Notes under the pieces: generated by a model
The model's database searches: none
What the model saw: only the letters and a program-made list of their open reading frames with translations
What the model was told of the DNA's origin: nothing
Program-made: the position numbers and the translations under genes
Shown: positions 1 through 7,319 of the stretch, piece by piece
How the letters are laid out: each line of letters opens with the position of its first letter
Numbering within the stretch: position 1 is the first letter of the stretch
Assembly: GCA_964428135.1 (NCBI GenBank)
Contig: CAYRXD010000018.1
Location: 1 to 20,259 of the forward strand
From: an uncultured Candidatus Saccharibacteria bacterium
GTDB taxonomy: Bacteria; Patescibacteriota; Minisyncoccia; Phycocordibacterales; CAIJYI01
Direction: 5' to 3'
Length of the DNA: 20,259 nucleotides

Positions 1-382
1 TTCCCGCAAACACGGTAAGATGATACGTTGTGTTTTCGTATGAACCCGTATCCGCCCCGAAAACAACCGGCATGATGGTTTCTGCGCCCGGCACATTTTC
101 TTTCTTGCTCAAAAGTTCAAGGTCTTTATTCTTCAAAGAGTCCGTAAACATCTGCGCCACATCCGCCGGCCCCGTCGGTTGCCGCCCCGGAATGATGGCG
201 ATAGTCTTCGAGCCAATCCCTTGCACCGCCCCGAGAATCAATCTTTGCGCTCCCTGTCCGAGCGAGATGATAAGGATAATGGAAGTCACCCCGATAACGA
301 TACTGAGCATGGTAAGCGCCGACCGCGATTTGTTCACGGCAATGCTCTTTATGGCGGTTTTGAAAAGGTGTTTCGGGTGCAT
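1..382 (-). CDS. ABC transporter permease, MacB/FtsX family; N-terminal part only, gene continues beyond window start
   Basis: Not in the ORF track because it has no stop inside the window. Manual translation of the minus frame from ATG at 382..380 is open down to nt 2 (no in-frame TTA/CTA/TCA triplets on plus). It reads MHPKHLFKTAIKSIAVNKSRSALTMLSIVIGVTSIILIISLGQGAQRLILGAVQGIGSKTIAIIPGRQPTGPADVAQMF... This is a basic N-tail, a hydrophobic TM1, then the start of a periplasmic domain, the usual architecture of MacB/FtsX-type permeases. It lies 21 nt downstream of the RhuM gene on the same strand. Confidence 0.7.
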   Translation of the reverse strand, partial: MHPKHLFKTAIKSIAVNKSRSALTMLSIVIGVTSIILIISLGQGAQRLILGAVQGIGSKTIAIIPGRQPTGPADVAQMFTDSLKNKDLELLSKKENVPGAETIMPVVFGADTGSYENTTYHLTVFAG

Positions 383-403
383 GATGTTATAGTCGAAAGT
401 CTC

Positions 404-1405
404 CTACTTCGTTTGTCGCTTCCTTTTAGCGCTTTCAATCGCTTTCAGTGCCGCCTCGTCAAAATCAATATCCTCCGCCGCTTCTCTTTTTTTGTATTCG
501 CTGAAATTCTTTTCGGCGATTTCCGCCGCCAGTTCATGCGATATTTTTCCGGCATCTTTCAGGATGTTTCTGTCGTTGATGATTAAAAATCCGTGAAGTT
601 TTTCCAGCCAATCATTCATCGTCATCGGTATTCGCCGACGCGCCTGTTCCGCGGCAAACACCAAATACTGTTCCACCAAGGCGTTAAGCTGCGCTATCTC
701 TTCCTTGTTGTAATAATTTTTTGCAATAAGAACTTCTTCTTTTGTCGGTTTATTTCCTCTCCAATTCGTCAGCCCGAGATTCTTTTTCCCGCTGTCAATC
801 CGCTCGACGACAATTTCCGCCGCGGTGTTTCCCGTAACAGCATAATGGACTTTATTTTGCACCGTCTTAAAAAACAAAACGCTCTGATCGTCTGCCGGGT
901 CATAATCAACGCTGGTCGCATAAATATCGGTAATTTTTCTGTAAAATCTTTTTTCACTCGCGCGGATGTCCGCGATGGTTCGTTCAAGTTCTTCAAAATA
1001 ATCAAACGGCACATCGGGATTTTTCAGCCGTTCAACATCCAGCACAAAACCTTTCACGATATATTCCGAAAGACGTTTGGTTGCCCACTTGCGGAAAGCC
1101 GTACCTTGAGATGATTTCACTCGGTAGCCCACGGCGATGATGACGTCTAAATTGTAGTATTTTACAAGATATTCTTTACTGTCTGTACCAGTTCGTCGGA
1201 ATTCCCGACATACTGAATCCGAGATGAGTTCACCCTCTTCAAAAATATTTTGAATGTGCTCGGTAACAGTAGATCTGCCTTTTCCATACAAAGTGGCTAT
1301 CATGTCTTGAGTAAGCCAAACGGTATCGCCGTCAAAGCGAACATCAATCTTGACATTCCCGTTCCGATCTTTGTATATGACGATTTGTGAGTTTAGATTT
1401 TCCAT
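404..1405 (-). CDS. RhuM-family protein (Virulence_RhuM domain, putative DNA-binding)
   Basis: ORF track 404..1435. The N-terminus IVIYKDRNGNVKIDVRFDGDTVWLTQDMIATLYGKGRSTVTEHIQNIF matches what I recall of RhuM-family N-termini. Start placed at the second ATG (1405, MENLNSQIV...), because the first ATG (1435) lies inside palindrome P1 and overlaps the upstream ORF. Confidence 0.75.
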   Translation of the reverse strand: MENLNSQIVIYKDRNGNVKIDVRFDGDTVWLTQDMIATLYGKGRSTVTEHIQNIFEEGELISDSVCREFRRTGTDSKEYLVKYYNLDVIIAVGYRVKSSQGTAFRKWATKRLSEYIVKGFVLDVERLKNPDVPFDYFEELERTIADIRASEKRFYRKITDIYATSVDYDPADDQSVLFFKTVQNKVHYAVTGNTAAEIVVERIDSGKKNLGLTNWRGNKPTKEEVLIAKNYYNKEEIAQLNALVEQYLVFAAEQARRRIPMTMNDWLEKLHGFLIINDRNILKDAGKISHELAAEIAEKNFSEYKKREAAEDIDFDEAALKAIESAKRKRQTK

Positions 1406-1418
1406 AAAGTTATTAAAG

Positions 1419-1676
1419 TTATTGCGGCATGACATGAATCATTTTCGTGACACCACGAAAATGATTCATGTGGTGTTTTTGGGGTTCGCTCACATGAGCG
1501 AAGTGCGAATCTATTTTTTGCCCGCTGTTCTTGCAAGATTCTTTCGCCCGCTCAATCGCCGGTAAAAATTTCCCATACTCGGTGTACCCAAGCAATTTAT
1601 ACAAATCCCGCGCACTCCAAAACTCCTGTCCGTGTTCGTTCACCTTTTTTATCTGTTCAAAAATGTTGTTTGGCAT
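1419..1676 (-). CDS. DinD-like / Bro-N-like N-terminal domain protein, probably truncated (85 aa)
   Basis: The N-terminal 65 aa (NEHGQEFWSARDLYKLLGYTEYGKFLPAIERAKESCKNSGQKIDSHF) resemble the N-terminal domain of DNA-damage-inducible protein D as I recall it; full DinD is about 270 aa. The last 19 codons are read straight through palindromes P2 and P1 before a stop, so the C-terminus is unlikely to be native. Confidence 0.5.
   Translation of the reverse strand: MPNNIFEQIKKVNEHGQEFWSARDLYKLLGYTEYGKFLPAIERAKESCKNSGQKIDSHFAHVSEPQKHHMNHFRGVTKMIHVMPQ
1434..1502. repeat. Two adjacent perfect palindromes: P1 16-bp arms (1434-1449 / 1454-1469, spacer ACAC) and P2 8-bp arms (1485-1492 / 1495-1502, spacer CA)
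   Basis: Read directly: ATGAATCATTTTCGTG-ACAC-CACGAAAATGATTCAT and TTCGCTCA-CA-TGAGCGAA. Both lie at the 3' end of the DinD-like ORF and the 5' edge of the RhuM gene. Confidence 0.9.
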
Positions 1677-1688
1677 AAAATTTAAAAT

Positions 1689-2408
1689 TTATTTTTTAAA
1701 TCCAACCCTCGCCTGCTTCCGATGCGCCGCTTTCTCGTCCTTCTCTATCTCCCCGTCTTTCATGTGCAAAATGCGCTCTGCGGTTTCGGCGGCAGAGGTT
1801 TCGTGAGTGATGAGGACGATGGTGCGGCGGTCTTTTTCGTTCAGGTCTTGAAGAATTTCCATGATGGCTTGCCCCGACTTTGAGTCAAGGTTCCCTGTGG
1901 GTTCGTCCGCAAAAATCACTTGCGGATCGGTGACGAGGGCGCGAGCGATGGCGGCGCGCTGTTTTTCTCCGCCGGAGAGTTCCGAAGGCTCGTGGTCGGC
2001 ACGGTGTTCGAGTCCGACATCTTTGATGGCTTTCATGGCAATAGCATGCCATTTGTCTTCGGGAATATCCGAATACACGAGAGGGAGAACGACGTTGTCG
2101 TACACGCTCGTACGGGGAAGAAGGTTGAATGCTTGAAATACAAACCCCATTTTTTTATTGCGGATGCTTGCGACTTCGGATTCTTCATAATCGTCCATTT
2201 TCTTGCCGTCAAAAAGATACTCGCCGGAAGTCTGCCCGTCAAGAAACCCAAGAATGTGCAGGAGGGTTGATTTGCCCGAACCGGAGGGACCCATAATCGC
2301 CACAAACTCTCCCGCTTCAATTTCAAAAGATACGCCGCGGAGCGCGACTGTGGCACTGTCACCGTCTGCGTATTTCTTTTTAAGATTTTTTACTTCAATA
2401 ATGGACAT
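1689..2408 (-). CDS. ABC transporter ATP-binding protein (MacB/LolD/FtsE-like ATPase, no fused permease)
   Basis: Walker [13 protein letters not shown] signature LSGGEKQR, Walker [14 protein letters not shown]-loop ITHE; 239 aa. Confidence 0.9.
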
Positions 2409-2572
2409 AATGGGGATTTATAATTTCTTATTTTACTATGTGCTAATTATAGCTTTTTTGTAAACGAAATAAAATTTGACCCACGGATCAAATAATGTTA
2501 TGTTCTTCTTTGAGAAGTCGGGGGGTACTCTGACTTTGTTCTTTGTTAAAAACTACTACCAAAAGGCGTAAA

Positions 2573-3124
2573 ATGAATACCGATTTAGTACCACGCACAA
2601 AAACGAACACTCTGAAACAATTCTCAGTTCTTCATGAGCAGATACAGGCGTTAGACCTTGAGGCAATCAAATTCAAACTCGTATTTGATTCTCATGGCGC
2701 ACCATGGAGCGTCGAAAAAGTTACGCAGATTGAACTTTTGTATAAACGCTTTCTTGTTTTGGTGGGGAAACACCCCGACAAGCATATCGTGCCTTTTTCT
2801 GAAGATGTCGATGCATTTTGGCATTGCCATATCCTTGACACGGGAAAATATGCGCACGATTGCATGAATATTTTTGGGAGGTTTATACATCACTTTCCTT
2901 ATCTTGGATTGCGGGGTGAAGAAGATTTACAATTTGCACAGAAAAGCTTTGCGGAAACCTGCTCTCTTTACGAACAGGAGTTCGGTGTTTCTCTTACATC
3001 CACAATATCCATGGATGTCGGTTGTACCAATTGCGCCCCGGTACCTTCTTGTAGCGGCGACCCAAGCCCGACAATAGACCAAAAGCGCCCATCACTAAAA
3101 GAACACCTTGCTCAGTTACACTAA
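2573..3124 (+). CDS. DUF1399 / glycine-rich-domain-containing-protein-like (GRDP-like) family protein with Cys-rich C-terminal tail
   Basis: The motif DAFWHCHILDTGKYAHDC resembles the W-H-C-H-x-L-x-P-x-x-Y-x-x-D-C core I recall from plant GRDP / DUF1399 proteins. The C-terminus VGCTNCAPVPSCSGDPSP is Cys-rich. The ORF track starts at a TTG (2543); I prefer the ATG at 2573, which has AAGG 6 nt upstream. Divergent from the ABC ATPase gene. Confidence 0.55.
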   Translation: MNTDLVPRTKTNTLKQFSVLHEQIQALDLEAIKFKLVFDSHGAPWSVEKVTQIELLYKRFLVLVGKHPDKHIVPFSEDVDAFWHCHILDTGKYAHDCMNIFGRFIHHFPYLGLRGEEDLQFAQKSFAETCSLYEQEFGVSLTSTISMDVGCTNCAPVPSCSGDPSPTIDQKRPSLKEHLAQLH

Positions 3125-3166
3125 AAAACGAGTAATCAGGTAAAAACGAAACAACAGTTTAACTTC

Positions 3167-3199
3167 AAACCTCACGATAATCTTATCGTGAGGTTTTTT
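3167..3199. terminator. Bidirectional intrinsic terminator between the convergent DUF1399 and S9 peptidase genes
   Basis: AAACCTCACGATAA-tc-TTATCGTGAGGTTT hairpin followed by TTTTTT on the plus strand. It sits directly after both convergent stop codons. Confidence 0.65.
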
Positions 3200-4094
3200 A
3201 TGCGCCGTGAGGTGTAACGTTCGGGAGCGGTTTTTCTTTTACCAAATAGTCATCAAACCATTGTTTGATAAGATTTTCCGCTTCTTTTTTGTTTTCGGTT
3301 AGCCCGTGATCATTCCCCTCAAACAAAACGAGTCTGTGAGGAATCTTGTGTTCATAAAGTATTTTAGAGAGGTCGACGGAATCAAGAGGGCTTACTCTCC
3401 AGTCAGACAAGCCGTGCATCAGGAGAAGCGGCGTTTTTTTAGGAAAGAGGTGCGCCCAAAACACCGCTGATCTTTTCTTTTTTTCAGCCAAAGAACCGCC
3501 GAACATTGTTTTCATCGTGTCGTTCATGCCCGGTCTTTCTTTTGCGTTTCTTACCAGATTGGAAAGACCGTATACGGAAACCGCCGCCTTAATCCATTTT
3601 ACTTTCGCTAGCGACAAGTAGAGCATCATGCCGCCGCGGCTTCCTCCGTACATGCCGATTTTTTTCATATCAGCCAACGGGTGTGTTTGCAATACTTTGT
3701 ATAAATTCAAAACATCATCCAAGTCCTTCCCCCCGAATTCATCAATTCCTCCGCTTCCGCCGTTACCGGAATACTGAGTGGTAATGACTATATAGCCCCA
3801 CTGTGCCATTCGCGCCATGGGTAAAAATAAGGTTGCGGAATTAATTGAGCCGAATTCCCCCGAGCCGCCGCGGTTATAAATAATACACGGGAGCTTACCG
3901 GGAGCAGGGGTTTTGGGCTCAACGATAAAGCCGACGACTTTATGCCCGCCGGATTTATATACTATTCTCTTCACAACAACATTCTTGCTGTTTTGTTCAG
4001 CTTGTTGTATTGCTACAGCACTATAAACAGCCGATATTTTTTCTTTACTATCTTGAAACAAAATTTCTTCGCTTGAGAGAACGATATTTTTCAT
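3198..4094 (-). CDS. S9-family serine peptidase / alpha-beta hydrolase, catalytic domain only
   Basis: Nucleophile elbow GGSRGG (GxSxG), HGxxD-type Asp (HGLSDWRV) and C-terminal His (NDHGL) in the order typical of the prolyl-oligopeptidase / acylaminoacyl-peptidase catalytic domain. 298 aa, no beta-propeller. Confidence 0.8.
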   Translation of the reverse strand: MKNIVLSSEEILFQDSKEKISAVYSAVAIQQAEQNSKNVVVKRIVYKSGGHKVVGFIVEPKTPAPGKLPCIIYNRGGSGEFGSINSATLFLPMARMAQWGYIVITTQYSGNGGSGGIDEFGGKDLDDVLNLYKVLQTHPLADMKKIGMYGGSRGGMMLYLSLAKVKWIKAAVSVYGLSNLVRNAKERPGMNDTMKTMFGGSLAEKKKRSAVFWAHLFPKKTPLLLMHGLSDWRVSPLDSVDLSKILYEHKIPHRLVLFEGNDHGLTENKKEAENLIKQWFDDYLVKEKPLPNVTPHGA

Positions 4095-4117
4095 ATATTT
4101 TTGTGTTTATTCGTGTC

Positions 4118-5695
4118 TTATTTATTTGTCGGCACAACAACCTGCTCTCCCTCCGAAAGTCCCGAGACGATTTCCACGTATCCATCCGAACCGCGGAGTC
4201 CGGTTTGAACGGGGACATCGGTAACAATCGCGTTTTCAAGCACTTGCGCAAATACTGAATTTTCTTTTCGTATCAGCTGGCGTTGCGGCAACGCCAAACG
4301 CCCTAGTTTTTGTTCTGTGAGAATATCTATATTGGCGGTCATGCCGGATTTAATCCGCGCATCGTTTCCGCGAAACTGAAATGTCGTTTTGTAGGTCGCC
4401 ACTCCTTCAATGAGCGTTTCGGCGGGATCGATGGAAACAATTGTTGCCGGGAATATCACAGTATCGCCATAAGCATCAAGCGTCGTGGAAGCATTGTCGC
4501 CGATATGTATCTTTGCAATATCCGCTTCGGGAATAAATGCCTCGATCTCAAGATTCGATTGTGAAATAATGGAAAAAAGCGGCACATTCGGTGAAACAAT
4601 CTCGCCCTGTTTTATATCCTGCCGGGTAATCGTGCCGGAGATCGGCGCACGAAGAAGGAATTTCGCCGCTTCCGCTTCAAGAGAACGGATGCTCGCTTGC
4701 ACCTGCGCAATCACTGCTTCCTGGACGGAGACGGTGTTTATTTCTGTCGGTGCCTTTTTGAACGCCAAAGTTGACTCTTCAAGGGTCACATTCGATTCAG
4801 CAACGCGAAACGACTGTTCAGCGGAATCAAGTGCGGAAAGCGCGGTATTTATATTCGTTCGCACGGTTGAAATATCCGTTTTGTACCCGTCTATTGCGGC
4901 TTGCGTAATGTTCGAACCGGGTACCGCAACAGAAAGGGCAAGCGCAGCTTTATCCAAGAACGTTTTAATGGTTCCAAGACGTTCTTTTATCGCCGCCAGA
5001 GCGCTCGCGTCTGCCGTCTCCGTTTCCACACCCCAAACGGCAAGCATTTTTTCGATGTCCGCCCGGCTGGTCTCAAACGCGTTTTGGAGTTTGAAGTCGT
5101 TCAAAGAAAGGGTGATTTGAGGATTCGCGCTGCGGGGATTGGTGAAAAACTTGTCCGCTTTATTGCGAATGGCATCGTCTGACTTCGTGTATGCATCGTC
5201 CATTACGGTCAGCAGACTTTTCTTGGTGTTCTCAAACGCGATTTTTGCATTCGCTACCTTGGTTTTTTGTACGTCTATTTCCTCGCTCCGCGTCCCCTGT
5301 TTGAGCTGCCTCAGTTTTGCTTCTTCGGAAAGTAAGCGTGCTTTCGCTTCATCGATTTTTGCCACTGCGTCTGCATTCTCAAGTTCCGCAAGCACGCTTC
5401 CCGCTTGTACGCGGTCTCCGACCTTCACATAAACGCGCGACACGCGCCCGCCCCTCTCGAATGCCAAACTCGCCTCAGCCGAGGGCTTCACCCGCCCGGT
5501 CACGCTCACTTCCTGTTTTATATCCCGCCGTTCCACTGCCACGAACTCATAGACAGGCGGCTTCGGACGCAGATAATGTGCCGCCGCACCCCCTGCGAGA
5601 AGTACTATGACAAGAAATATGAAAATAGCTTTATGGCGGCGAAAAAAGGATTTTGTCATATCTATAATTATGCTCTTTTTCCTCCTCTTTATCAA
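4118..5695 (-). CDS. HlyD-family periplasmic adaptor (MacA-like membrane fusion protein) of a tripartite efflux system
   Basis: N-terminal signal-anchor (FIFLVIVLLAGGAAA), long coiled-coil middle region, C-terminal beta-barrel / lipoyl-like motifs (ISGTITRQDIKQGEIV, ANIDILTEQKLGRLALPQRQL). The ORF-track start is a TTG at 5695; an alternative ATG at 5659 (MTKSFFRRHK...) is equally plausible. Confidence 0.8.
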   Translation of the reverse strand: MIKRRKKSIIIDMTKSFFRRHKAIFIFLVIVLLAGGAAAHYLRPKPPVYEFVAVERRDIKQEVSVTGRVKPSAEASLAFERGGRVSRVYVKVGDRVQAGSVLAELENADAVAKIDEAKARLLSEEAKLRQLKQGTRSEEIDVQKTKVANAKIAFENTKKSLLTVMDDAYTKSDDAIRNKADKFFTNPRSANPQITLSLNDFKLQNAFETSRADIEKMLAVWGVETETADASALAAIKERLGTIKTFLDKAALALSVAVPGSNITQAAIDGYKTDISTVRTNINTALSALDSAEQSFRVAESNVTLEESTLAFKKAPTEINTVSVQEAVIAQVQASIRSLEAEAAKFLLRAPISGTITRQDIKQGEIVSPNVPLFSIISQSNLEIEAFIPEADIAKIHIGDNASTTLDAYGDTVIFPATIVSIDPAETLIEGVATYKTTFQFRGNDARIKSGMTANIDILTEQKLGRLALPQRQLIRKENSVFAQVLENAIVTDVPVQTGLRGSDGYVEIVSGLSEGEQVVVPTNK

Positions 5696-5726
5696 ATCTA
5701 AAAATTATGATATATTCATGTAATCA

Positions 5727-5797
5727 CGGGATGTAGTATACCGGTAGTACGCGCGATTCGGGTTCGCGTAGACCGAGTTCGATTCTCGGCATCCCGA
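5727..5797 (+). tRNA. tRNA-Pro (anticodon CGG)
   Basis: Hand-folded cloverleaf. Acceptor CGGGATG / CATCCCG (7 bp, C1-G72, A73 discriminator). D-stem GTAT/GTAC. Anticodon stem CGCGA/TCGCG with loop TTCGGGT (anticodon CGG, G37). T-arm CCGAG-TTCGATT-CTCGG. CCA not encoded. Confidence 0.85.
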
Positions 5798-5808
5798 TTC
5801 ATTAGACC

Positions 5809-5872
5809 TTATTTTGACAAGCGAGGTCGGAGTGAAAACAAGTTTTCACTCCGACCTCGCTTGTCAAAATAA
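5809..5872. repeat. Perfect inverted repeat with 31-bp arms and a 2-nt spacer, immediately 3' of tRNA-Pro
   Basis: TTATTTTGACAAGCGAGGTCGGAGTGAAAAC-AA-GTTTTCACTCCGACCTCGCTTGTCAAAATAA, no mismatches. No U-run follows on either strand. Confidence 0.9.
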
Positions 5873-5907
5873 AGCGAAGATCTCGACAAAGACGACTCGC
5901 GTTATAC

Positions 5908-5997
5908 TTCTCCCTCCTTCTTCTTCGGAGCAATGCCATTCAATACCAAAAGCTTTTCAAAATCGGCGCGTTCGATGGTTTCTACGCGGATGAGTTC
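5908..5997. repeat. 90-bp direct-repeat copy A: near-identical duplicate of the last 90 coding bp of ftsH (copy B = 7404..7493)
   Basis: Aligned by eye: 5908-5997 vs 7404-7493 are identical except for 1 mismatch near the 5' edge. Similarity ends abruptly at 5997/5998 and 7493/7494. Confidence 0.85.
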
Positions 5998-6006
5998 GGC
6001 GAAAAT

Positions 6007-6327
6007 TTATTCTTCAAGCAGCGTAGGAATATCTTGCGCGGAGTGAATAATACGAATTATTTCTAAATACTTTCCTTTTTGGGTTTGGCGGTAAAAGATG
6101 AGATACTTGCCAAAATCTCTTATCGGCAAAACGCGCATACCATCAATCCGCACATCGGTATCTTTATACTGTTTCCCGACAAACGGCATGTCAGCGACTA
6201 TCTGTGCGGTTTCGATAAATGAGGAAATAAATTTCCCTGCCGCATCTCGATTGTCTTCTGCAATATGCCGAGCATGAACAAAAAGGTCTTGTTCGGCTTT
6301 ATCAGAAAGGTAAAATGCTCGTTTCAT
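6007..6327 (-). CDS. parE: Type II toxin, ParE/RelE family
   Basis: MKRAFYLSDKAEQDL...YLIFYRQTQKGKYLEIIRIIHSAQD matches the ParE/RelE toxin fold signature. Start moved to the internal ATG (6327) to remove a 46-nt overlap with the upstream antitoxin, leaving an 11-nt gap, typical of TA operons. Confidence 0.8.
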   Translation of the reverse strand: MKRAFYLSDKAEQDLFVHARHIAEDNRDAAGKFISSFIETAQIVADMPFVGKQYKDTDVRIDGMRVLPIRDFGKYLIFYRQTQKGKYLEIIRIIHSAQDIPTLLEE

Positions 6328-6338
6328 AAGAGGCGCGG

Positions 6339-6596
6339 TTATTTTTTGATGCTTTTCAAAAGTTTCTGCTCCAATACTTTCCATTCCTTTTCGCCGATTT
6401 TTCGCGATTTCGAACTCACGCCTTCCAGCAAAAGCGCGTGTATGCGGTCTTTTTCCTGCTGTTTGATGTCCTCGCGCACAAGACTCCGAACGTAATCGCT
6501 CGGGGTTCCATAGTGTTCTTCTTTTACGCGCCTCTTAATGTGTTCCTTCATTTCTTTAGGAAGCGACACGCTCATGGTTGCTGTTTTCGTAGTCAT
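6339..6596 (-). CDS. parD: Type II antitoxin, ParD-like (ribbon-helix-helix)
   Basis: TMSVSLPKEMKEHIKRRVKEEHYGTPSDYVRSLVREDIKQQEK matches the ParD antitoxin N-terminal RHH consensus (TSVSL...Y.S.SE..R..LR). 85 aa, immediately upstream of parE. Confidence 0.8.
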   Translation of the reverse strand: MTTKTATMSVSLPKEMKEHIKRRVKEEHYGTPSDYVRSLVREDIKQQEKDRIHALLLEGVSSKSRKIGEKEWKVLEQKLLKSIKK

Positions 6597-6628
6597 AATA
6601 TTTGTGAATTATTGCGATTTATTGTTAC

Positions 6629-6656
6629 AGTATATTCTTTTCCGAGAAATCGTCAA
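6629..6656 (-). promoter_or_regulatory. Putative sigma70-type promoter for parDE (TTGACG-16-TATACT)
   Basis: On the minus strand, TTGACG (6656..6651), a 16-nt spacer, TATACT (6634..6629), about 30 nt upstream of the parD ATG. Confidence 0.4.
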
Positions 6657-6929
6657 ATTACTAGATTCACGTACACGCTCACCGTTTAGCTCTTGTCCGG
6701 CGGTGAATTATTATACCACACTTTTTTGATTTATATGGGGTCCCCATTACCTGACCCCATTACCCACGTCGTCTTCCTCGCGAATGCGGGGAACCAGAAA
6801 ATAGCGCCTAAAATCTGGATTCCGTGTCAAGCACGGAATGACGAGGCGTGAGGAGATCTCTCAGTTACTTGACAAAAGATTTAAAATACGATAGTCTGAA
6901 AAACAGGCATAACTTTATGAGGAAAGGCT

Positions 6930-7298
6930 GTGGAAATATACACCGTACCAAATCCCGATTCGCATGAATGGGGAAAAGAACTCGCTAAAACTTTTACCGG
7001 AGAAACCCCGCTCACGGAAATGGTCTTTGAAATACTAGAAAGCAAAAGAGTCGGGCCATTTTGGATTGTTTTGTCGGAAAAAGAAGAAGCTTTTGTTATT
7101 GAGGCCGCAAAGAAATTCATAATGAGAGAGCCCTCTGCTTGGCTTTTGCAATTTTTTCTTGGAAAAATTATTCATGGGGACGACCACTATATATGCGGGA
7201 GATCGGTTTTTGTTTCCTTCATAAACACAGAGAGTCGGCTACCGACGAATGAAAAAACAATTTGCAGGCTGGCTATATGGGTTGATACAAACAAATAG
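6930..7298 (+). CDS. Hypothetical protein (122 aa), GTG start
   Basis: Open frame with AGGAAAGG SD-like sequence just upstream of the GTG. A TTGACA-17-TAGTCT promoter-like sequence lies about 50 nt upstream. Followed by a strong terminator. No family recognised. Confidence 0.5.
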   Translation: MEIYTVPNPDSHEWGKELAKTFTGETPLTEMVFEILESKRVGPFWIVLSEKEEAFVIEAAKKFIMREPSAWLLQFFLGKIIHGDDHYICGRSVFVSFINTESRLPTNEKTICRLAIWVDTNK

Positions 7299-7319
7299 CA
7301 ATATATTTATATTACAACG

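Follow-up and report, generated by a model that had tools for sequence, protein, structure and literature searches.

A 64-nt perfect palindrome between tRNA-Pro(CGG) and an ftsH relic in a Paceibacteria contig: a candidate bidirectional transcript-end hairpin

Introduction

What purpose, if any, is served by a perfect 64-nt palindrome that begins only a few nucleotides after a tRNA gene? The locus belongs to a complete 20,259-nt NCBI contig of a Patescibacteria/Paceibacteria (CPR) MAG, which we refer to as the window, and the palindrome is the sole outstanding inverted repeat in it. The initial annotation of this DNA offered three functions for the palindrome: an element end or recombination site, a protein-binding site, or a very stable processing or terminator structure for the tRNA transcript. 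The analysis below leads us to conclude that the last of these fits best, while the element end is unsupported.

Results and discussion

The palindrome and its predicted fold

An inverted-repeat search of the window located the palindrome (31+2+31) at 5809-5872 (Table 1). It begins 11 nt after the discriminator base of tRNA-Pro and ends 35 nt before copy A of an ftsH 3'-end repeat; the initial annotation had both distances right, and its pairing of tRNA-Pro(CGG) with an adjoining perfect palindrome is borne out by ARAGORN, Rfam and the inverted-repeat search. The stop codon of a relic ftsH is 29 nt from the palindrome and ~62 nt from its centre. All 31 pairs between the arms are Watson-Crick, with no G-U. 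Folded alone, the palindrome gives an RNA helix of ~30 bp (dG -49.7 kcal/mol), the same on either strand, with a z of about -14 to -16 against shuffles. Since a match to the 24-nt arm core is contained in 0/100 shuffles of the window, the palindrome is far beyond chance. The uninterrupted double-stranded RNA of ~30 bp predicted for both strands would be long enough for an RNase III substrate (at least about 20-22 bp).

Table 1. Features surrounding the palindrome, in window coordinates
Feature	Position	Strand	Basis or remark
HlyD-like adaptor	4118-5659	-	gene order around palindrome
Promoter-like site (TTATCA, 16-nt spacer, TATATT, with TG)	5689-5716	+	consensus scan only
tRNA-Pro(CGG), 71 nt, no encoded CCA	5727-5797	+	ARAGORN and Rfam (55.9 bits)
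tRNA 3' trailer, TTCATTAGACC	5798-5808	+	last part alignable to relatives
Palindrome, left arm	5809-5839	.	TTATTTTGACAAGCGAGGTCGGAGTGAAAAC; repeat search, folding
Palindrome, centre	5840-5841	.	asymmetric AA; 4-nt loop once innermost C-G pair is open
Palindrome, right arm	5842-5872	.	31 nt, 100% complementary to left arm
Spacer, relic ftsH stop to palindrome	5873-5901	-	weak hairpin (-8.2 kcal/mol), then UUUAUUUU
Relic ftsH 3' end (copy A)	5902-6002	-	reads ...KKKEGEV, stop 5902-5904
ParD-ParE toxin-antitoxin cassette with promoter	6003-6656	-	83% nt identity to L091 407-1061
ParE	6007-6384	-	Pfam ParE_toxin
ParD	6339-6596	-	name taken from cluster members
About 0.8 kb between ParDE and ftsH	about 6600-7390		
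Copy B of repeat, 3' end of intact ftsH	7404-7502	-	repeat search
Intact ftsH	7392-9437	-	Pfam/ORF analysis

On each strand the stem carries TTATTTT on its 5' outer side, is rich in GC in the middle and turns AT-rich toward the loop. The 3' flanks, AGCGAAGA on the + strand and GGTCTAAT on the - strand, provide no U-tract after the stem, the best 8-nt window at the palindrome holds four T, and a terminator scan of the window did not list the palindrome among its sites. Of the two features of an intrinsic terminator, the locus thus has the stable GC-containing hairpin just downstream of a transcription unit and lacks the U-tract of ~7-9 nt, so the earlier statement that it is not a canonical intrinsic terminator stands. 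We also agree that the stem is longer than termination requires, ~30 bp being two to three times the usual terminator stem. TTGACA hexamers can be read close to both outer ends of the palindrome; a promoter role for them was rejected, as they have no -10 element at a usable spacing and are absent from the promoter scan.

The tRNA-Pro side

Four relatives carry an identical or near-identical tRNA-Pro. Three (L081, L082 and L084) were reached through the closest HlyD homologues (68-72% aa) and the fourth (L088) by a direct DNA search with the tRNA and its trailer. The tRNA matches that of the window at 71/71 positions in L088 and is 96-97% identical in the other three, the sequence upstream of the locus in the relatives is similar to the promoter-like stretch of the window, and the trailers of L081, L082 and L088 (CTCATTATT[T/G]AACC) resemble that of the window (TTCATTAGACC). 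At that point the similarity ends. Homology to the four loci stops 0-2 nt from the left edge of the palindrome, the palindrome itself is absent from 4/4 of them, and in each a same-strand gene (PAP2, or a TPR gene and then PAP2) lies 8-60 nt past tRNA-Pro. The similarity of the palindrome and its right flank to the relatives' trailers is not significant against shuffles, nor is that of a small GGAGTGC/GCACTCC hairpin in the L088 trailer to the palindrome. The absence from four relatives, together with the end of homology at the left edge, indicates that the palindrome is lineage-specific and marks a synteny break, and is not a conserved tRNA terminator. Conservation behind tRNA-Pro in all relatives, by which the initial annotation would have recognised a plain terminator, is contradicted by these loci, whilst its placing of the palindrome at a structural boundary is upheld by the homology that ends there. 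As the window never returns within the contig to the relatives' post-tRNA sequence (PAP2/TPR), the change is to be read as a rearrangement and not as a demonstrable insertion.

The tRNA-Pro locus of L088 has further peculiarities. At 5590-5860 there is a tRNA-Pro-like 5' half, with a TGG-type anticodon loop, upstream of tRNA-Pro(CGG), and a 31-nt 3' tRNA fragment lies 55 nt downstream of it; a degenerate upstream half-tRNA is also found in L081 and L084. These pieces look like remnants of past recombination at tRNA-Pro. L088 is also without the entire HlyD-ABC-MacB operon between HisRS and tRNA-Pro. The locus is evidently recombination-prone, in view of the half-tRNA pieces and the missing operon in L088, and the tRNA fragments on both sides lend support to the earlier suggestion that this tRNA flank is a hotspot.

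The ftsH side and the ParDE islet

The relic matches the ftsH 3' end of the intact gene at 95% identity and that of the relative L085 at 92%. The direct repeat so formed covers 99 nt (5908-6006 and 7404-7502, 95% identical), and the duplicated ftsH 3' ends (~100 nt) bracket an islet whose ParDE unit is transcribed toward the palindrome. In L091 the ParDE cassette stands directly before an M17 peptidase gene; in the window its neighbour is instead the terminal ~100 nt of an ftsH. The initial annotation had put the palindrome at the edge of this islet. A structural boundary does lie there, but the palindrome is outside the duplicated ends. The hairpin of the intervening spacer on the - strand folds no better than shuffled sequence, and the UUUAUUUU that comes right after it consists of the first bases of the palindrome.

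The islet looks like either an insertion with long target duplication, a process first described in Helicobacter pylori (Furuta et al. 2010, PMC2853133), or the result of homology-anchored illegitimate recombination with donor DNA that carried ftsH and cargo. It is like the former in that ParDE and ~0.7 kb, with no mobility gene, lie between ~100-nt direct repeats of the ftsH 3' end, and differs from it in that the cargo is a toxin-antitoxin and not a restriction-modification system and in that the palindrome is outside the repeats. Under either origin, the 30 nt past copy A and the palindrome are the older ftsH 3' flank.

Among GTDB species representatives, the best matches to FtsH come from Paceibacterota (Yonath-, Kaiser- and Nomurabacteria, about 70% identity). 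Closer relatives are L085 (90% aa), L089 and L090 (same 90% cluster), and L086 and L087 (~80%); the region after ftsH holds no homologue of the palindrome in any of these five. The ftsH 3' flank of the closest relatives is variable cargo, often toxin-antitoxin (HEPN/MNT in L085, a ParE-like pair in L089), and then, in L089 and L090, the M17 peptidase; as the toxin-antitoxin pairs differ, we take the flank to be a cargo hotspot. A wider set of 80 Paceibacteria loci (L001-L080) shows tRNA-Ile(TAT) behind ftsH in nearly every case, usually in the same orientation and at times convergent, and tRNA-Pro in none. With respect to tRNA-Pro, the genes ftsH, hyp528 and FA-hydroxylase are oriented as an inversion with breakpoints just after tRNA-Pro and just after ftsH would leave them.

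Perfect palindromes at convergent junctions

The initial annotation regarded long perfect palindromes as a rarity of bacterial chromosomes, a view that fails for this clade. With a minimum arm of 14 nt and a maximum loop of 10 nt, 81 perfect palindromes occur in about 973 kb of Paceibacteria loci, including another with 31-nt arms (L074 2808-2873, -53.1 kcal/mol), which lies directly after ftsH and faces a convergent tRNA-Ile. In L042 a hairpin with 23-nt arms lies between convergent ftsH and tRNA-Ile and overlaps the 3' end of the tRNA, and the clade often has a long perfect hairpin immediately behind ftsH. When junctions were counted in the window and eight close relatives with gene calls, a perfect palindrome (arms of at least 11 nt) was present at 8/14 convergent junctions and at 2/103 others (Fisher p = 1.8e-7); within the window itself the figure is 3/3. 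Perfect palindromes are thus associated with convergent junctions across the clade. In a survey of 118,019 genomes, bacterial perfect inverted repeats were found to peak 50-80 bp after stop codons (PMC13155455), and both the distance of ~62 nt from centre to stop and the link with convergent junctions agree with this general peak.

The layout of the palindrome sets it apart. An A-run, GC-core and T-run are seen in 83% of 126 perfect palindromes of the clade (arms of at least 12 nt), and the window palindrome is in the minority; among the long palindromes (17-nt arms or more), roughly a fifth likewise have no T-run. In size and perfection, therefore, the palindrome is ordinary for its clade, and it is the layout, with its missing U-tract, that is unusual.

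A proposed bidirectional transcript-end hairpin

With tRNA-Pro on the + strand and ParDE and the ftsH relic on the - strand, the palindrome lies between two converging units. We suggest that it is a bidirectional transcript-end or insulator hairpin between them, and would put the probability of this reading at roughly 0.55. The + strand unit would be tRNA-Pro with its own promoter-like site, and the - strand unit ParD-ParE with the ftsH relic, once the actual 3' end of that gene. We infer that the palindrome is transcribed and that its helix ends or processes the transcripts: RNA from either strand would form the identical ~30-bp perfect helix, which would mark or create 3' ends. The helix could in this way keep transcription of tRNA-Pro out of parDE antisense, and read-through from parDE/ftsH out of the antisense of the tRNA and of the HlyD-ABC-MacB operon beyond it. 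In the relatives tRNA-Pro runs into a same-strand gene, so that no stop would be required there, hence the absence of the hairpin; the rearrangement would have made tRNA-Pro face ftsH, and now ParDE, and it is only in that arrangement that the hairpin occurs.

How the helix would act is a separate matter. As no U-tract follows the stem, the mechanism is probably not the classical release by hairpin and U-tract, and the position of the T-rich run, at the 5' outer end of the stem instead of the 3' end, counts against a terminator. A perfect 30-bp duplex is an ideal structure for RNase III or for blocking exonucleases, and an uninterrupted helix of more than 22 bp is of sufficient length for RNase III. 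We suggest that the helix may serve for double-stranded RNA processing of the RNase III type and/or may block exonucleases and obstruct RNA polymerase, and that a processing site may be likelier than a canonical terminator. Hairpins without a U-tract are reported to have failed to terminate mycobacterial RNA polymerase in vitro (PMC3993855). Canonical termination on the - strand may be performed by the weak hairpin and UUUAUUUU of the spacer, a candidate for the real ftsH/ParE terminator.

Among known systems, bidirectional intrinsic terminators share with the palindrome the position between convergent units, ~60 nt from the stop codon, and the stable perfect hairpin that is identical on both strands, and the palindrome falls into one positional class with seven other convergent-junction palindromes of the window and its close relatives. 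It also resembles the hairpins after ftsH, such as that of L074. It differs from bidirectional terminators in having no A-run before the GC core, no T-run after it and a stem of ~30 bp. Processing stems of the RNase III type flank rRNA, some tRNA and some mRNA units. They are matched by the predicted unbroken helix of more than 22 bp beside a tRNA that needs release from its precursor, with the difference that relatives with the same tRNA lack the stem. We class the palindrome with the known convergent-gene hairpins, among which its very long stem without a U-tract is atypical.

A possible scar of rearrangement

The edge-exact end of homology, which would also fit an origin by recombination, counts against the insulator reading. 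The palindrome might be the scar of a rearrangement junction, its second arm having been copied by snap-back or template switch during the break repair or inversion that joined the flanks of tRNA-Pro and ftsH; or the base of a pre-existing hairpin might have been the breakpoint. Either way it would have no selected function. Besides the homology that stops 0-2 nt from the left edge in all four relatives, the arrangement in which tRNA-Pro faces ftsH, with hyp528 and FA-hydroxylase reversed, is inversion-like in comparison with L081, L082, L084 and L088 and with L085, L089 and L090, and a second perfect palindrome of the window (P2, 1432-1471) is also located exactly where ~90% nt homology to the dinD-like gene of L081 ends. 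The lack of G-U among the 31 pairs, every one of them Watson-Crick, suggests formation at the DNA level; as the ordinary gene-end hairpins of the clade also have perfect Watson-Crick arms as a rule, this feature is of no help in choosing between the readings. Where cargo was inserted in the window, most junctions are without a palindrome, no pre-existing single arm was found in any relative compared, and the strong link with convergent junctions points to function and not to accident. On balance, we consider the scar unlikely.

A possible mobile element

The palindrome could also be a miniature mobile element of the REPIN or MITE type, in which two 31-bp terminal repeats abut; or it could belong to a larger element inserted beside the tRNA, as its end or recombination site. 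We take its form (two inverted units of ~30 nt, a 2-nt spacer, an intergenic position and a hairpin) to recall REP doublets and minimal MITEs, which would favour such an origin, as would the traces of past recombination at the tRNA-Pro locus of L088 and the insertion-like nesting of an L088 palindrome within the loop of another hairpin. In all data searched the palindrome is single-copy. The window lacks a further copy of the arm even with three mismatches allowed, and there is no exact match to the 22-nt arm core in JGI metagenome contigs, GTDB species-representative genomes or IMG/VR, and no similarity to the palindrome in about 1 Mb of related loci, so the MITE/REP-like family that the initial annotation had named as one outcome did not emerge from these searches. 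Nothing beyond chance is common to the palindrome and the other U-tract-less palindromes of the clade, and blastn of 5798-5910 against phage and plasmid collections gave chance-level matches only.

Signs of insertion were sought at the site itself. The flanks of the palindrome (ACC and AGC) contain no direct repeat that would be a clear target-site duplication. The self-complementary TA at 5810-5811 and 5870-5871, inside the arms, could hide a TA duplication, though as such it is indistinguishable from the palindrome itself; the sequence past the palindrome does not resume homology with the relatives' trailers. Pfam revealed no integrase, recombinase or transposase among the 19 main ORFs of the window (the neighbours are HlyD-like, ParE, ParD, FtsH and others), and no repeat of the tRNA 3' end or trailer exists in the 20-kb window with up to three mismatches, an element longer than the contig being possible. 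With no tRNA-derived repeat, no recombinase and no other copy of the arm, the proposal of an integrative-element end at the tRNA is not supported, and we judge a mobile origin of any kind improbable.

Other known structures were considered. An integron attC site was rejected, since the ends (TTATTTT / AAAATAA) are not RYYYAAC ... GTTRRRY and the stem is perfect, with no bulges or extrahelical bases. A protelomerase or hairpin-telomere target was rejected because the AA centre is not self-complementary and the window has no protelomerase gene, and a CRISPR repeat on sequence features. At a permissive threshold, Rfam returned only generic microRNA-precursor hairpin models (12-33 bits, against gathering thresholds of 53-120), and the cumulative GC skew of the contig has no switch.

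A second palindrome and operon cargo

The second palindrome, P2, has 18-nt arms and a 4-nt loop (-24.7 kcal/mol). It sits where ~90% nt identity to the dinD/Bro-N-like gene of L081 stops, after codon 67, and RhuM begins; the start of RhuM is at 1405, with P2 27 nt upstream. Deletion of the 40 nt of P2 would bring the dinD fragment and the RhuM frame into phase. An independent Logan contig (L093, from run SRR12113431) reproduces this at 99.93% over window 298-1742. As to whether P2 travels with RhuM, IMG/VR yielded only a 44% relative of RhuM. RhuM is 80-86% identical across many CPR lineages. The HlyD-ABC-MacB efflux operon (window 1-5659) is interrupted by different cargo in the window, L081, L082 and L084: BanI-type restriction and methylase genes, an NYN protein and further methyltransferases in L082, the dinD-like gene in L081, and an S9 peptidase, an ORF and RhuM in the window.

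It is conceivable that a hairpin-dependent form of recombination carries small cargo (RhuM, toxin-antitoxin pairs and genes for restriction-modification) into and out of conserved operons in reduced CPR genomes with no recognisable integrases or transposases nearby, and that the 64-nt palindrome (5809-5872) and P2, which both adjoin breaks in the homology to relatives, are its products or its substrates. We hold this to be a long shot; if true, it would point to an unrecognised route of gene shuffling in CPR bacteria.

A protein site or an assembly artefact as improbable readings

That the palindrome is an operator or other double-stranded DNA site for a dimeric or tetrameric regulator, as its perfect dyad symmetry and the TTGACA hexamers near both outer ends might suggest, is very improbable: it has no -10 element at suitable spacing, lies downstream of all neighbouring genes and not at a promoter, far exceeds usual operators at 64 bp, and has no conserved counterpart in relatives. 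An assembly artefact in the MAG contig, whether two genome regions wrongly joined (a chimera) or a read folded back on itself, is as improbable. The palindrome does coincide with the synteny break, its 31-nt arms are near common k-mer sizes, and the junction is known from one assembly, the exact HlyD and FtsH products being matched on no contig in a gene-position index. A fold-back, however, would give read-long arms and mirrored flanks, and here one flank is a conserved tRNA trailer and the other the end of an ftsH, stop codon included. The centre, an asymmetric AA, should make the assembly path unambiguous for k above about 33, both halves are similarly diverged from relatives of the same sample series, and the other palindrome-bearing part of the window (298-1742) is reproduced at 99.93% by the independent Logan assembly.

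Implications for the clade

A transcript-end hairpin at this locus would be one instance of a wider habit, as Paceibacteria set long perfect palindromes at most convergent gene junctions (8/14 in the window and its eight relatives). That roughly a fifth of the long palindromes lack a U-tract raises the question of how transcripts end in these reduced genomes. The 3' flanks of tRNA-Pro and ftsH undergo fast remodelling by small cargo.

Other observations

An imperfect 34-nt inverted repeat (76% complementary; 7280-7313 and 9451-9484) flanks the intact ftsH and may be chance. A block of ~8 kb (window 9495-17276) separates ftsH from a 528-aa gene that in L085 stands immediately before ftsH; the block encodes an 842-aa protein with a major-vault-protein shoulder and repeat domains, NUDIX, ADP-ribosylglycohydrolase, NAD synthase and NAPRTase, and looks like an inserted NAD-salvage or ADP-ribose-related island.

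The motif GTAATGGGGTCAG, tandem and partly palindromic, occurs at 6735-6766 in the window and at 10203-10280 and 13226-13237 in L089, with a variant, GGAACGGGG, at about 300-330 in L091. In these different genomes it stands beyond the block of cassette homology, 80-170 nt upstream of genes for ParD-type antitoxins, and could be a regulatory or cassette-boundary site.

L088 contains, at 10675-10800, a nested double perfect palindrome (-74.4 kcal/mol in total) in which a 28-bp outer stem with a terminator-like A-run and T-run surrounds a 20-bp inner stem, and it looks as if one palindrome has been inserted into the loop of another. Four long perfect palindromes with 25-29-nt arms are found in L035 (317-378), L048 (5041-5100), L046 (4073-4128) and L008 (4506-4559). 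The four have conserved outer arms in common, (C)CATCTCCACAA / TTGTGGAGATG(G) in the first three and CCACCTCCACAA / TTGTGGAGGTGG in L008, and their cores are variable. These conserved-arm palindromes lie 1-2 kb upstream of ftsH in L048, L046 and L008, and about 0.9 kb upstream in L035.
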